Assembly (NCBI GenBank): GCA_002344825.1
Contig: DDUN01000006.1
Span: forward strand, 9,816 to 73,815
Direction: 5' to 3'
DNA length: 64,000 nt
Origin: Candidatus Multiplicimicrobium inquinatum
Lineage (GTDB): Bacteria; Omnitrophota; Omnitrophia; Omnitrophales; Aquincolibacteriaceae
Below the pieces are notes generated by a model that saw only the letters and a list, made by a program, of their open reading frames with translations, did not search any database and was not told the DNA's origin. Of this stretch, positions 9,452 to 40,566 are shown one piece after another. Made by a program: the position numbers and the translations under genes. The stretch's first letter is position 1, and each line of letters starts with the position of its first letter.

Positions 9452-9476
9452 CCTCTGCGCTGATGCGCAACCGGCG
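9452..9476 (+). repeat. short hairpin motif, family 1 copy (CCTCTGCGC-tgat-GCGCAACCGGCG) 15 nt after the rpoD stop
   Basis: Near-identical copies occur at 23616 and 40543. Confidence 0.7.
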
Positions 9477-9501
9477 GTACGCTAGCCGCACCTTAATGTT
9501 T

Positions 9502-9575
9502 GGGCTCGTAGCTCAGTCGGTTAGAGCAGGGGACTCATAATCCCTTGGTCCCTGGTTCGAGTCCAGGCGGGCCCA
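9502..9575 (+). tRNA. tRNA with anticodon CAT (tRNA-Met elongator or tRNA-Ile2-lysidine)
   Basis: A manual cloverleaf fold works. The acceptor GGGCTCG pairs with CGGGCCC, the D arm is GCTC/GAGC, the anticodon loop is CTCATAA and the T arm is CCTGG-TTCGAGT-CCAGG. No CCA is encoded. Confidence 0.85.
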
Positions 9576-9588
9576 CTGCATTGTTTTT

Positions 9589-9612
9589 GCTCTGTGGCTT
9601 TGCCACAACCGC
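9589..9612 (+). repeat. short hairpin motif, family 1 copy (gCTCTG-TGTGG-loop-CCACA-ACCGC)
   Basis: Same flanks as the other family-1 copies, with a compensatory stem sequence. Confidence 0.6.
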
Positions 9613-9640
9613 AAGCTTGCCCAGATTCGAAGTTTTAAAA

Positions 9641-9710
9641 AAGAGCCGTCTACGGCGTCAAAATTTCATTCCTTTGTGCGGAGTCGTTTTCACTACACCT
9701 CCGCAGTCAT
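9641..9710 (+). repeat. intergenic repeat, family 2, degenerate copy
   Basis: Carries ...cctttgtgcggagtcgttttcactacacctccgcagtc..., homologous to the copies at 15692, 29826 and 41858. Confidence 0.5.
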
Positions 9711-36790: not shown

Positions 36791-37903
36791 ATGATGTCGA
36801 CAGAGCCTGCTTTCAAAAAAAATATTGAAGCCATTCATCCCTATGAGCCTGGGAAACCGATCAAGGAAGTTCAGCGTGAATTGGGTTTGAAGCAAATCGT
36901 TAAATTGGCGTCAAACGAAAACCCTTTGGGCGTTTCTCCACTTGCTTTGAAAGAAATGCAGCGCGTCCTGAAAGAGTGCTTTCTTTACCCCGAAGGCGGA
37001 TGCCACGAGGTTTTGCATGCGCTTTCCCGCGAACTCAAACTTCCACCCGAGCAAATTATTTTCGGTAACGGCTCCAATGAAATTATTGAGCTGGTTGGAC
37101 GCGGATTTCTTTCCGAAGGCGATGAAGTTGTTTCGTCGGAGAGTTCTTTTCTTGTTTATCCTATTTTAACGCAGGCTTCCGGCGGGAAGTATGTCAGTGT
37201 GCCGATGACCTCTGATTACCGTTATGATTTGAAAGCGCTTGCTGAAGCGGTAACACCTAAAACTAAAATTATTTTCATTGCGAATCCGAATAATCCGACG
37301 GGAACTTATGTCCGCCGCCGTGAAGTCGAGCGGTTTTTGAAGCGTGTGCCTAAGCGTGTTGTGGTCTGCTTTGACGAAGCTTATTTTGATTTTGTGGACG
37401 CCAAAGACTTTCCGGATATTCTCGAATTAATTCGCGGCGGCTCGCCGAATGTTTTATTGTTTCGGACTTTCTCCAAGGCGTATGGGCTTGCAGGTGTACG
37501 CATTGGTTATGCTTGTGCCTCAGCCAAAGTAATTGGCTATCTGCATAAAATTCGCCAGCCTTTTAATGTGAATATGGTGGCGCAAGCGGCGGCGAAAGGC
37601 GCAATCCAAGATAAAGCCTTCAGAAAGAAAACGCGCGAGATCACTTTTCAGGGGCGAAAGTTTTTAGCCGAGACTTTCGATAAATTGGGGCTTGAACATT
37701 TGCCGAGCCAAGCCAATTTTATTTTGGTGAAGGTGAATCAAAACGGACGCGAGCTTTGCAAATCTTTCCTTAAAAAAGGAATTATCGTGCGCGCGATGGA
37801 TGCTTATGGTTTTGATGACTGGATTCGCGTGACGATCGGCCTTCCGAAACAGAACCGCTTATTCATTAAGCGCTTGGTCAAATTTTTAGGGCTGAAGCGT
37901 TGA
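36791..37903 (+). CDS. hisC: histidinol-phosphate / aromatic aminotransferase (class II)
   Basis: Shows LASNENPLG and a PLP-lysine region (FSKAYGLAGVRIGY). Confidence 0.8.
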   Translation: MMSTEPAFKKNIEAIHPYEPGKPIKEVQRELGLKQIVKLASNENPLGVSPLALKEMQRVLKECFLYPEGGCHEVLHALSRELKLPPEQIIFGNGSNEIIELVGRGFLSEGDEVVSSESSFLVYPILTQASGGKYVSVPMTSDYRYDLKALAEAVTPKTKIIFIANPNNPTGTYVRRREVERFLKRVPKRVVVCFDEAYFDFVDAKDFPDILELIRGGSPNVLLFRTFSKAYGLAGVRIGYACASAKVIGYLHKIRQPFNVNMVAQAAAKGAIQDKAFRKKTREITFQGRKFLAETFDKLGLEHLPSQANFILVKVNQNGRELCKSFLKKGIIVRAMDAYGFDDWIRVTIGLPKQNRLFIKRLVKFLGLKR

Positions 37904-38781
37904 AGTCGCCCGCGTTTAAAAAAATCGTTATCATTGGACTTGGTTTGATGGGCGGCTCGCTTGCCGCCGCCGCACGAAAAAAATTTCCTAATTCTCAAAT
38001 TGTCGGGGTCTCAAGAAGTCGCAATGCTCTAAATCTTGCTTTTAAAAGAAAATGGATCACTGAAGGACATTACGATCAAAATTTAGAAATGGCATTGGCG
38101 GGGGCTGATTTTGTTGTGATTTGTACGCCTGTAGATTTGATTTTTCACTATTTAGGCATAATTGATAAATCTGTTCAAAATCCTGTTGTTGTTACGGATG
38201 TGGGCAGCGCTCAAAACTCAACGGCGGAGTTGGTGAAAAGGAAAAAATGGAAGTATGTGCGTTACGTCGGTGCCCATCCCATGGTTGGATCGGATGCGCG
38301 GGGTATTCATGCAGCTAAACCCTCGTTATATGAGAATGGCGTAGTTATCATAACTGGTGAAAGTAAAAAGCCTGGGTTTCGGCCGGTTGCACAATTTTGG
38401 AAAGAAATTGCTAGAGAGGTTAGTCATTTTGATCCAAAAATCCATGATAATCTTATTGCGCAAATTAGCCACTTGCCGCATTTGCTTTCTACTTGCCTAA
38501 TGCTTACAGCTTCTAAAGCCTCTTTGAAGGTTGCCGCCACGGGTTTTAAGGATATGACGAGATTGGCAAATGGGGCCGAATCAATATGGGCCCCAATCTT
38601 CACGAGTAATAAGACGTATTTGATTAAAGCCCTTTCTAAATATAAAAAGGAGTTAGCTAAATTAGAACATTTAGTTAAGTCTAATGATACCAATGGCTTG
38701 CGTAAGGTATTGCGAAATGCTGCGGAATTACGCAACAAGTGGGAACGTTCAAAGAAGAATATTGCTTGCCTGCCAGACTGA
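37900..38781 (+). CDS. tyrA: prephenate/arogenate dehydrogenase
   Basis: Has a Rossmann motif (IVIIGLGLMGGSLA) and a PDH catalytic region. A TTG start overlaps the hisC stop. Confidence 0.75.
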   Translation: MKSPAFKKIVIIGLGLMGGSLAAAARKKFPNSQIVGVSRSRNALNLAFKRKWITEGHYDQNLEMALAGADFVVICTPVDLIFHYLGIIDKSVQNPVVVTDVGSAQNSTAELVKRKKWKYVRYVGAHPMVGSDARGIHAAKPSLYENGVVIITGESKKPGFRPVAQFWKEIAREVSHFDPKIHDNLIAQISHLPHLLSTCLMLTASKASLKVAATGFKDMTRLANGAESIWAPIFTSNKTYLIKALSKYKKELAKLEHLVKSNDTNGLRKVLRNAAELRNKWERSKKNIACLPD

Positions 38782-38973
38782 TTCGCCTATAATTCTCCCT
38801 CACGCGAAGGGTATTTTGCCCTGAGCGAATTCAATCATAGAATCCGGATGGTCCGGGTTCCAAGAGTTAAACTGTTTTCCGATGCGGCAATCGCAAAGGG
38901 GAAAATCCGACTGACCGTTTCACGGCCACAGGAAAAATAAGACAGGGCTCTTAAACAGGAGAAATCAATCAGC

Positions 38974-40518
38974 ATGTCAACATTCGCAGAACTTTTCGAA
39001 GCATCCACAAGCAGTCTTGCAGAAGGCTCTTTAGTTAAAGGCACGATCGTTGCCGTAAAAAACAACCAGGTGATGGTTGATATCGGATTTAAAGCCGAAG
39101 GTCTTTTAGATATTAATGAATTTTCTTCCCCTGAAGAAGCCGTGATCGGCTCTGAAGTTGAAGTTCTGTTTGAATCGTTTGACGATAAAAACGGTTTGTC
39201 TGTTGTTTCCAAGCGTAAAGCCGATCGTCAGCGTACTTGGAATGAAATTCTTTCCACAGCTCAAGAAGGTACGATTGTTGACGGTCGTATTTCCCGTAAA
39301 GTACGCGGCGGTCTTATGGTTGACGTGGGCATGGATGCTTTCTTGCCTGCTTCGCTGCTTGACGTTCGCCCGGTACGCAACGTTGACGCGTTGCTCGGTC
39401 TCCGCAGTAAATTTGTGATCGTAAAAATCAATCACAAGCGCAAAAACATCGTTGTTTCCCGCAAAGATTTTCTCGAAAAAGAACGCAGCGTTCTCCGCAC
39501 CGACCGCTTGAGCAAGCTCGCCGTGAATGACGTTGTACAAGGAAAAGCTAAGAACATCACTGATTTCGGTGTGTTCGTTGACTTGGGCGATCTTGACGGA
39601 TTGCTGCATATCACCGATATGTGCTGGGGCCGCATTTCTCATCCTTCTGAAATGGTTAAGGTTGGGGATGAAATCGAAGTGGTTGTGATCGGCATTGATC
39701 GCGAAAAGAACAAAGTTTCTCTCGGTCTTAAGCAGAAATCCAAGGATCCTTGGGTTGCTGTTGACGATAAGTATTCCATCGGAAACCAGGTTCGCGGCCG
39801 TGTTGTGAACATTCTTCCTTACGGTGCTTTCGTTGAACTTGAGCCCGGCATTGAAGGTTTGGTTCACATCAGCGAACTCAGCTGGACGAAGCGCGTTGCG
39901 CATCCGAGCGAAATTCTCAAAGTCAGCGATGTGCTTGACGTTGTGATTCTGAGCCTCGACAAAGACAATCGTAAGATTTCTTTGGGTGCGAAGCAGACTC
40001 AGGAAAATCCGTGGAAAAAAGCCCAGGATAAATACAATGTCGGCGACCGCGTGAAGGGGAAGGTTCGTAATCTCGTGGATTACGGTGCTTTCATTGAACT
40101 TCAAGACGGTATCGACGGATTGCTGCATGTCTCCGATATGTCATGGACACAGAAAATTCAGAAAGCCGCTGACTTTGTTAAAAAAGGCGACGAGCTTGAA
40201 TTGATGGTTCTTTCGGTGGATGTTGAAGCTCAGAAAATTTCTTTGGGCCTCAAGCAAATGAGCATCGATCCTTGGAATGATTTGACGAAGGATTTACTCG
40301 CCGGTAATCAGGTGACAGGCAAAGTTTCGCGTATCGTGAACTTCGGCTTATTTGTCGAAATCGATGGCGGACTGGAGGGTCTTGTTCATATCTCCGAAAT
40401 TCCGGATGCGAAGACACAAGCCGATGTTGAATCTCGTTTTAAGCCCGGTCAGTCCGTGAATTGCACGGTATTGAATGTGGATCAAGCGGGACGCAAAATC
40501 AGCCTCGCGCTGAAGTAA
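38974..40518 (+). CDS. rpsA: 30S ribosomal protein S1
   Basis: Contains repeated S1 domains (GTIVAVK..., VQGKAKNITDFGVFVDLG..., VRGRVVNILPYGAFVEL..., VKGKVRNLVDYGAFIEL...). Confidence 0.9.
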   Translation: MSTFAELFEASTSSLAEGSLVKGTIVAVKNNQVMVDIGFKAEGLLDINEFSSPEEAVIGSEVEVLFESFDDKNGLSVVSKRKADRQRTWNEILSTAQEGTIVDGRISRKVRGGLMVDVGMDAFLPASLLDVRPVRNVDALLGLRSKFVIVKINHKRKNIVVSRKDFLEKERSVLRTDRLSKLAVNDVVQGKAKNITDFGVFVDLGDLDGLLHITDMCWGRISHPSEMVKVGDEIEVVVIGIDREKNKVSLGLKQKSKDPWVAVDDKYSIGNQVRGRVVNILPYGAFVELEPGIEGLVHISELSWTKRVAHPSEILKVSDVLDVVILSLDKDNRKISLGAKQTQENPWKKAQDKYNVGDRVKGKVRNLVDYGAFIELQDGIDGLLHVSDMSWTQKIQKAADFVKKGDELELMVLSVDVEAQKISLGLKQMSIDPWNDLTKDLLAGNQVTGKVSRIVNFGLFVEIDGGLEGLVHISEIPDAKTQADVESRFKPGQSVNCTVLNVDQAGRKISLALK

Positions 40519-40542
40519 CTTTTGCTCTGAGCTGTTTTGTGA

Positions 40543-40566
40543 GCCTCTGCGCAAGGCGCAACTGGC
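40543..40566 (+). repeat. short hairpin motif, family 1 copy (GCCTCTGCGC-aag-GCGCAACTGGC) 24 nt after the rpsA stop
   Basis: Near-identical to the copies at 9452 and 23616. Confidence 0.7.

Follow-up and report, generated by a model that had tools for sequence, protein, structure and literature searches.

A hairpin repeat family in the 64-kb window

We analysed a stretch of 64,000 nucleotides (nt) from Candidatus Multiplicimicrobium inquinatum (contig DDUN01000006.1; the whole stretch is hereafter called the window) that carries, among other genes, rpoD, a tRNA-Met gene, the RNase P RNA gene rnpB, a pyrR-like gene, the gene for an RRM protein, scpB, rpsA, fabF and ileS. Short hairpins with conserved flanks recur between and, in two cases, within these genes. 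A scan for CTCTG followed by a stem of at least 5 bp and by CAAC detected nine canonical copies, all on the + strand, while dinucleotide shuffles of the window yielded a mean of 0.14 structured matches (maximum of two in 300 shuffles), so that within the window the pattern does not occur at the frequency expected by chance. A covariance model built from 83 copies and run over the window with filters off returned exactly nine copies, again all on the + strand and scoring between 19.8 and 49.5 bits, with the next match at 12.5 bits. Besides the canonical copies, the window contains an outer copy that has been disrupted and an antisense copy that has decayed. Coordinates, strand and setting of all of these are as follows.

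9441..9485, + strand: copy 1; T-rich arm a few nt after the rpoD stop codon (9435-9437), 15 nt from stop to CTC; core CTC-TGCGC-tgat-GCGCA-ACCG; 33.4 bits
9578..9623, + strand: copy 2; 13 nt past the 3' end of tRNA-Met (9502-9576); core CTC-TGTGGC-ttt-GCCACA-ACCG; 44.8 bits
12488..12533, + strand: copy 3; 26 nt past the 3' end of RNase P RNA (12098-12473); core CTC-TGCGCC-tgt-GGCGCA-ACTG, the same in relative L113; 41.5 bits
12764..12796, + strand: copy 4; in the pyrR leader, T-rich arm overlapping the T-tract of the leader terminator (12736-12759); core (12775-12796) CTC-TGGCC-ttc-GGCCA-ACCG; 19.8 bits
12797..12840, + strand: copy 5; follows copy 4 in direct tandem, 36 nt before the pyrR-like ATG (12877); core CTC-TGAGC-ttc-GCTCA-ACCG; 40.8 bits
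23606..23649, + strand: copy 6; 3' untranslated region (UTR) of the RRM-protein gene (stop 23600-23602; 15 nt to CTC), upstream of the terminator of that gene (~23727-23760); 46.4 bits
35399..35444, + strand: copy 7; in-frame within scpB (34659-35621, Pfam ScpB), encoding ...VSASEPSAQPA...; 49.5 bits
38896..38943, - strand: decayed antisense copy; rpsA 5' UTR; CTG-TGGCCG-tgaaa-CGGTCA-GTCG; 7.6 bits
40519..40532, + strand: outer copy, 5' half; cTTTTG-CTC-TGAGC, directly after the rpsA stop codon (40516-40518), split by copy 8; read from the sequence
40533..40576, + strand: copy 8; rpsA-fabF spacer, 26 nt from the rpsA stop to CTC; core CTC-TGCGC-aag-GCGCA-ACTG; 34 bits
40572..40581, + strand: outer copy, 3' half; GCCCA-ACCG-C, one stem mismatch; read from the sequence
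58896..58941, + strand: copy 9; in-frame within ileS (57331-60249, Pfam isoleucyl-tRNA synthetase), a 36-nt (12-residue) insert; 37.3 bits

Seven of the nine copies had been recognised in an earlier note on this DNA (CTCTG starts at 9453, 9590, 12500, 12776, 12809, 23618 and 40545, + strand). Each was found as described there, with conserved flanks, a stem beginning TG and ending CA, and a variable, self-complementary core; the distances given from rpoD, tRNA-Met, RNase P RNA, the RRM gene and rpsA agree with those listed above, and the tandem pair in the pyr leader does lie upstream of a pyrR-like gene. The count of seven was too low, the two copies that had been missed being those within scpB and ileS; these two (copy 7, CTCTG-containing core at 35411, and copy 9, at 58908) share the identical 22-mer CTCTGAGCCTTCGGCTCAACCG. 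The density of copies along the window is uneven, with eight in 31 kb followed by one in 23 kb. A search of the window with Rfam 15 at gathering thresholds reported only RNase P RNA and three tRNAs, and left the hairpin unmatched.

Architecture of the repeat unit

The unit is an imperfect palindrome of about 36 nt. It begins with a T-rich 5' arm of roughly 8-10 nt (upstream of CTC, T makes up 53-77% at most of the positions -3 to -10) and ends with a short purine/A-rich arm (T at 15-31% from +3 to +6), beyond which there is no marked T-run. The base of the hairpin is formed by a covarying foot helix of 2-3 bp, G(C)C...G(G)C. Its foot pair 12/39, which joins the nucleotide 5' of CTC to the nucleotide 3' of ACCG, takes the form G-C 37 times and C-G 35 times, and is paired in 78 of the 83 aligned copies; its covariation score of 0.415 compares with 0.108 in shuffled alignments and was matched by none of 500 shuffles. 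The next pair outward is formed in 56 of the 83 copies, and an invariant C-G pair, formed by the C that opens CTC and the G that closes ACCG, completes the foot. Above it, UC in the 5' strand faces ACC or ACU in the 3' strand, an asymmetric internal loop that is invariant in all 83 aligned copies. The inner stem comprises 5-7 Watson-Crick pairs, opening with T-A and G-C and then continuing with a sequence that is variable yet complementary (TGCGCC being the commonest stem), and is capped by a hairpin loop of mostly 3 nt, often TTC.

When matches to CTCTG-N7-17-CAAC(C/T)G were collected from Omnitrophota-like loci on the basis of their flanks alone, 105 of 115 formed at least three further inner base pairs. 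We therefore regard the hairpins as a genuine repeat family with covarying stems, as the earlier note had proposed, and the covariation persisted once many copies had been aligned. The composition of the stems is informative in itself: the 331 variable stem cells of 90 copies hold 318 Watson-Crick pairs, three G.T, five A.C and five other combinations. Since G.U is not in excess over A.C, the palindromy is equal on both strands, which is unusual for selection on RNA alone and argues for palindromy at the DNA level rather than for RNA-only selection.

A long outer helix between the T-rich arm and the 3' arm was considered and rejected, as only its first 2-3 pairs exceed expectation (flank duplex energy -6.87 versus -6.31 +/- 0.26 with partners permuted). 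The flanks are not inviolate, for TTC replaces CTC in L019 and CAGC replaces CAAC in L146.

Copies within protein-coding genes

The earlier note had described the family as intergenic; about one fifth of the copies lie in-frame inside protein-coding genes. We counted 14 independent sense insertions deep in long or Pfam-supported open reading frames (ORFs), and throughout these a single frame is used, encoding (A/S)S(E/A)PxAQP (in short, SxPxAQP). Because all three frames of the GCGCC-type core are open, this use of one frame is a real bias. Three or four further intragenic copies are antisense and read V(E/G)(P/S)K(A/T)Q. The recipient genes encode UvrA, Dxs, BamA, NuoL, AtpD, AtpG, the E2 component of 2-oxoacid dehydrogenase, pirin, IleRS and ScpB. 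When the ScpB protein of the window is set against an unrelated protein of locus L010, the peptide encoded by the repeat is their sole similarity. Copies persist in housekeeping genes only in the frame that encodes the flexible S-x-P-x-A-Q-P peptide.

Gain, loss and decay of copies between relatives

The ileS gene shows the repeat as a polymorphism. Twelve extra residues stand between DAWF and YFLG in the IleRS of the window and in those of P0001 (95% identity), P0003, P0004 and P0006 (82-83%), P0005 (77%) and the partial P0007 (94%); they are absent from P0002 (89%), P0008 (83%) and every IleRS at 55-58% identity. The DNA sequences differ here by 36 nt, a segment that is the repeat itself. 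Likewise, AtpD of locus L028 has 12 extra residues at its copy relative to the ATP synthase beta subunit of PDB entry 2qe7_D. A pair of NuoL genes that we considered as reciprocal empty-site controls was set aside as ambiguous, the lengths of the segments being nearly equal. In the ileS gene of L018 (6290-6365), 33 extra nt precede the copy, resembling a partial tandem duplication of its 5' part (TCCTCGGAG...ACCTCTGAG), and the loop measures 6 nt instead of 3.

Presence and absence also alternate in spacers. The rpsA-fabF spacer of the window is 76 nt long and holds nested copies, versus copy-free spacers of 16 nt (L145), 22 nt (L137) and 12 nt (L140). The outer copy (40519-40532 and 40572-40581) holds the segment 40533-40571 in its loop; these 39 nt correspond to one 36-nt unit plus a 3-nt loop. 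In L120 a copy stands right after the TAA of nusG in the nusG-rplK spacer, and there is none in L051 and L072. The scpB copy of the window is absent in L145. In the 3' UTR of the RRM gene, the window and L004 have canonical copies with differing stems, and L113 (92% identical overall) and L006 have another hairpin, CTC-GATCT-gtta-AGATC-GGTG. At the start of fabF, the window (40582-40609) reads ATG AAC TCT TCG AGC and L145 (11552-11582) GTG AAC GCC AAT TCA, with nearly identical flanking coding sequence, and the ancestral Shine-Dalgarno-like rpsA-fabF spacer is gone in the window. The changed start and the lost spacer imply an event in which about 30 nt were replaced by about 90 nt, and no clean insertion.

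Copies decay as well. In the rpsA 5' UTR, L137 has a canonical antisense copy (3096-3145, - strand; CTC-TGACCG-cttcaaa-CGGTCA-ACCG) whose counterpart in the window is decayed. The ileS copy of L146, with its CAGC, is another relic, and a third stands directly past a stop codon in L146 (14139-14160, + strand), where the T-rich arm, CTCTG and AACTGC are kept and only GTT occupies the place of the stem; its sequence suggests that a palindrome can be lost from between flanks that stay in place. The radical-SAM gene found at this relic locus is preceded in L017 by a convergent pair of copies just upstream (20545-20647).

Host lineage and spread

The best matches of the IleRS and ribosomal protein S1 of the window are to Candidatus Omnitrophota, and its RRM-protein gene recurs on metagenome contigs from bioreactor sludge and in the metagenome-assembled genome (MAG) GCA_035436425.1. 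Exact copies of the 22-mer CTCTGAGCCTTCGGCTCAACCG are present in three Omnitrophota MAGs, where the 8-kb flanks carry more copies, with other stems and on both strands. A degenerate pattern retrieved 116 metagenome loci; the low-GC ones among them are Omnitrophota-like, many with several copies. The covariance model found 111 matches in 509 kb of Omnitrophota-like loci; beyond the copies of the window, relatives and metagenome contigs supply some 100. It found none in 56 kb from the more distant Omnitrophota L138-L140 (S1 only 66-69% identical) and none in the 21.5 kb of L145, a locus syntenic with the window at 82% nucleotide identity, where the window has three to four copies. From these absences it follows that the family is lineage-specific within Candidatus Omnitrophota and patchy there. 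Our literature search met no paper describing this sequence or such repeats in Omnitrophota, and a survey of the phylum (PMC10066038) is silent on any.

Several groups of matches were discarded. A seven-locus group (L031, L036 and others) and L032 proved to be conserved coding sequence matching by chance and were removed; four matches on viral contigs were all chance-like, G+C-rich and devoid of arm or foot; and matches in high-GC metagenome contigs were mostly chance hits of a G+C-rich pattern, a subset of them forming a separate conserved module. This module of about 110 nt occurs on contigs of 63-73% G+C, one of which (L015) is labelled a Rhodobacteraceae MAG, and contains the same core in the arrangement TTTTGTCTCGC-CTCTG-hairpin-CAACCG-GCTCGG...GCCTCCGGCGGGGATATTTGG, with a 5' arm as in copies 4 and 5 of the window. 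Its sites are L015 2304-2325 (-), L021 1074-1095 (-), L046 6712-6733 (+), L060 280-301 (-), L092 1339-1360 (-), L099 2183-2204 (-) and L135 1657-1678 (-). They are unrelated loci (the cbiG-cobM spacer, a position beside ppsA, and others), and the predicted fold places the hairpin inside a longer helix. The module is without an Rfam match, and the high-GC relatives had none even at E <= 1. On a contig of 56% G+C (L103 3192-3213, -), a copy lies between a full tRNA gene and a 25-nt direct duplicate of the 3' end of that tRNA, an arrangement that resembles an attachment-site scar and is only 58 nt long.

Position and orientation relative to genes and replication strand

The figures on position and orientation, here and below, derive from crude ORF calls on 97 candidate copies from low-GC loci, a set that still included the chance coding matches removed later. 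Copies lie between cistrons of ATP synthase, ribosomal-protein, PDH (pyruvate dehydrogenase) and bamA-skp operons, and also after tuf, rpmG, rplR, tRNA-Trp and nusG. Roughly one copy in four runs antisense to the gene around or beside it. A start codon often follows such copies after 12-33 nt, with GAG and the A-rich arm beside the ATG. The stop codons next to copies are TAA in 14 cases, TGA in five and TAG in two. That a stop codon is part of the repeat, or TAA its target, was rejected, because the stops of nusG and rpsA are native and usage is near background. Most copies are singletons; among pairs no more than 120 nt apart, eight are convergent, ten tandem and none divergent, and convergent partners differ in stem.

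With respect to replication, nine of nine window copies lie on the G-rich (leading) strand (GC skew +0.09 to +0.15), and across loci the G-rich strand carries about 53 copies and the C-rich strand 14, a count that is confounded with gene direction. Where gene and skew disagree, seven copies follow the gene and four the skew, which does not settle the matter.

A probable mobile palindrome family and its alternatives

We conclude that the hairpins probably constitute a dispersed, lineage-specific family of non-coding imperfect palindromes of about 36 nt, whose behaviour is that of REP (repetitive extragenic palindrome) or RPE (Rickettsia palindromic element) sequences, a non-autonomous kind of mobile DNA. 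The earlier note had taken the stem covariation as a sign of selection for structure rather than recent copying. This is not supported, as copying is visible in the same 22-mers in unrelated genes and genomes, in the 36-nt polymorphism of ileS, in presence and absence in the rpsA-fabF and nusG-rplK spacers and in the nested copy, and the stems lack an excess of G.U. Some copies may secondarily influence how mRNA is stabilised or processed or how translation terminates, since the majority are transcribed as part of 3' UTRs or intercistronic stretches.

By analogy with the RAYT and IS200/IS605 Y1 transposases that act on REP hairpins, a trans-acting enzyme would recognise the folded single-stranded DNA hairpin through its internal loop and foot, and copy it. 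Only copies still able to fold would be copied, and stems would in this way stay complementary while their sequence drifts, perhaps helped by hairpin-templated correction or gene conversion. Host selection would then filter which copies persist: those just past stop codons, those before start codons in the opposite orientation, and those in tolerant protein loops.

Several observations weigh against this interpretation. Intergenic copies share the orientation of the gene on their 5' side in 36 cases and oppose it in 13 (about 3:1), and in 18 of these 36 the CTC lies 5-15 nt past the stop codon and the T-rich arm 0-5 nt past it; such placement and co-orientation are not explained by mobility as such and need an extra assumption of targeting or selection. 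A perfect stem is kept in each of the five orthologous ileS copies, the locus being 72-90% identical in nucleotide sequence; the stem of the window is TGAGCC/GGCTCA and those of L017 and L019 are TGCGCC/GGCGCA with other loops, a compensatory change from A-T to C-G. These stem changes hit a Glu/Ala codon and the third position of an Ala codon, and the synonymous positions TCT, CCT and CCG are conserved in all five, CAA in four with CAG in L146. Judged from these sequences, such upkeep would not be expected for a purely selfish relic; host-level selection, conversion by other copies or hairpin-templated correction are possible causes. Hairpin-templated correction of quasi-palindromes is one way in which stems may stay perfect, and conversion by other copies is plausible since TGCGCC is the commonest stem. 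Moreover, no target-site duplication flanks the ileS insert or the rpsA-fabF copies, the empty alleles compared being diverged, and the relatives compared include no clean pair of empty and filled sites with exact junctions. In the rpsA-fabF spacer and in scpB the neighbouring sequence has been replaced and not merely interrupted, so that gene conversion or patch replacement could be the copying route. Most additional loci were recruited by a pattern that demands a perfect 6-bp stem of two types, which makes the frequencies approximate, and the longest reading frame was simply taken as the ORF, with several of the window's antisense calls being artefacts of spurious ORFs. The earlier note had seen no REP-associated transposase; the window encodes no transposase as far as Pfam searches of its unannotated ORFs reach, and a phmmer search with E. 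coli RayT against all ORFs of about 0.92 Mb, a low-power search of small genome fractions, was negative (best E value 0.48). No tnpA or tnpB adjoins any copy examined, and ORFs between inverted copies, considered as candidate transposases, are AtpG, a glucoamylase-like protein and similar genes.

The placement past stop codons and the co-orientation are at the same time the best argument for a different explanation, namely that the host selects the hairpin as an RNA element (a 3' stabiliser, a site for RNase processing or protein binding, or a modulator of translation termination, made of a U-rich tract and a hairpin) and that dispersal is secondary. Half of the co-oriented copies hug the stop even where the downstream spacer is hundreds of nt long; copies follow tRNA-Met, tRNA-Trp, rnpB, tuf, rpmG, nusG, rplR, rpsA, rpoD and ATP synthase cistrons; they are transcribed, since canonical terminators lie further downstream; and the orthologous ileS hairpin is retained with a compensatory change. 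In E. coli, ribosome stalling is reported to lower expression where a REP lies no more than about 15 nt from a stop codon. Nevertheless, we consider an RNA element of this sort rather unlikely as the primary explanation, given that about 20% of the copies lie inside ORFs and a quarter are antisense, that copies turn over between close relatives at the same 3' ends, that the highly expressed hupB and cspA of the window are copy-free, that stems show no excess of G.U over A.C, and that Rfam has no match. Doubtful, and a shade more so, is the idea that the foot and internal loop are the site recognised by a conserved factor and the repeat a new element or signal that seeks ORF boundaries, its core common to the Rhodobacteraceae-type module of about 110 nt. 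Sense copies may then set their T-rich arm against the stop and antisense copies their A-rich arm against the start, with the hairpin kept inside essential coding sequence. If true, this would mean either non-RAYT transposition aimed at translation boundaries or a host function in termination or in the handling of mRNA between cistrons, with transfer between phyla.

The copies might instead be DNA sites for a strand-specific, replication-related host protein, that is, a chromosome-organising, polar or uptake-type signal whose orientation follows the replichore. The strand counts given above fit such sites, the invariant loop and foot resemble a recognition site, and the two strands are equally palindromic. 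The skew is confounded with gene strand, however, and the discordant copies follow the gene seven times and the skew four times; the density is patchy, and close relatives are copy-free over syntenic stretches, a poor fit with an essential chromosomal signal. We hold this to be improbable. That the hairpins are rho-independent terminators of the preceding genes is, finally, hardly credible. They are G+C-rich and stand just past genes, and a few copies elsewhere (L094, L118, L121) precede a T-run; yet the T-rich tract lies upstream of the hairpin, its wrong side, which led us to reject this reading, and the downstream arm is purine/A-rich without a marked T-run. True terminators of hairpin plus T-run stand separately in the same 3' UTRs, and copies lie inside ileS, scpB, atpD and uvrA, where termination would be lethal.

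As mobile DNA, the family would provide a compact system for studying how tiny palindromes spread, how hairpins stay perfect despite sequence drift, and how conserved enzymes tolerate 12-residue inserts. On the practical side, copies can break metagenome assemblies and be taken for regulatory RNAs or for genuine protein features.

Other features of the window

The rnpB-pyrR spacer (12430-12900) is 99% identical between the window and L113, though the loci are 92% identical overall. It contains a near-consensus promoter (12595-12623) and a strong terminator (12736-12759, followed by T7), and then the two tandem copies 4 and 5; from its sequence, the spacer looks like a PyrR-type attenuation leader with repeats built in. 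Some 90 nt downstream of copy 6, immediately ahead of tRNA-Leu, stands the canonical terminator of the RRM gene (23727-23760, +), a hairpin with a T-run; L004 and L006 have kept it, with compensatory changes.

A gene for a YqaJ-like (phage-type) recombinase/exonuclease lies between the 3' end of dnaE and hupB-cspA, with two neighbouring ORFs (240 and 191 residues) without a Pfam match.

1669-2271, + strand: YqaJ-like gene
966-1688, + strand: neighbouring ORF
5204-5779, + strand: neighbouring ORF

Downstream of an lpxA-like gene, an ORF of 1969 residues (43181-49090, +) has no Pfam match; the ORFs of relatives at this position are far larger (>2571, >2746, 4035 and 6021 residues). It is reminiscent of the giant genes described in Omnitrophota (bioRxiv 10.1101/2023.11.21.568195).

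Comparison with known repeat systems

The closest parallels are the REP/RAYT and REPIN/BIME systems of Enterobacteriaceae, Pseudomonas and Stenotrophomonas. REPs are hairpins of 35-40 nt, copied by RAYT, in which a bulge that lacks complementarity is essential and the foot sequence is conserved (PMC3479197, PMC2817692), bulge and foot being essential for binding and cleavage (PMC3479197). A REP/RAYT system also has one RAYT gene, a Y1 transposase, with inverted copies on either side. The Omnitrophota repeat is similar in being an imperfect palindrome of this size, dispersed and in high copy number, with a bulge within the stem, a conserved foot and stems that vary yet remain complementary; it also often lies near stop codons, often forms inverted or tandem clusters and is lineage-specific (PMC3479197, PMC2817692, PMC3116915). 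REPs are, however, defined by a hairpin foot with a conserved 5' GT(A/G)G head (PMC3479197, PMC2817692), and neither strand of the Omnitrophota repeat has one, its foot reading T-rich plus G(C)CTC along the + strand and GCCGGT along the complementary one. About one fifth of the copies are intragenic, and the host is not a member of the Proteobacteria. The likeness to REP and BIME elements drawn in the earlier note is supported; with the head missing and the copies not strictly extragenic, membership in the REP/RAYT family proper cannot be claimed. Replicating doublets of the REPIN type were rejected because convergent partners have unlike stems.

RPEs frequently insert in-frame into genes (PMC10969869). 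Like them, the Omnitrophota repeat is a palindrome found in-frame in unrelated housekeeping genes, encodes a conserved peptide in one frame and also occurs between genes (PMC10969869). The ten RPE families differ in belonging to Rickettsia, a member of another phylum, in being some 100-150 bp long and in encoding 30-50 residues, compared with 36 nt and 12 residues here, and there is no sequence relationship. A strong preference for the first nucleotides past the stop codon is, to our knowledge, not an RPE trait.

With MITEs (miniature transposable elements bearing inverted repeats) such as Correia, ERIC and the Coxiella QMITE, the family shares a non-autonomous, dispersed nature, co-transcription with neighbours and occasional intragenic location (PMC10969869, PMC5896051). 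MITEs are 100-400 bp long and derived from insertion sequences (IS), with terminal inverted repeats and target-site duplications, in contrast to the single 36-nt hairpin described here, at which no duplication is visible. The subterminal hairpins of IS200/IS605 elements offer another parallel, an irregular hairpin with an adjoining conserved short sequence, and recognition as single-stranded DNA would likewise apply to the Omnitrophota repeat. IS608 and ISDra2 show an orientation bias towards the lagging-strand template. Unlike those subterminal hairpins, the Omnitrophota copies are solitary and bracket no cargo. Rho-independent terminators and SPRITE-type repeats are also short G+C-rich hairpins past genes, and in this family the T-tract precedes the hairpin.

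Taken as mobile DNA, the repeat would add a REP-like family to the candidate phylum Omnitrophota, one with an unusual mix of traits: the size of a REP, an RPE-like in-frame spread in essential proteins such as IleRS, ATP synthase, UvrA, BamA, NuoL and Dxs, and a sharp preference for the first nucleotides past stop codons.

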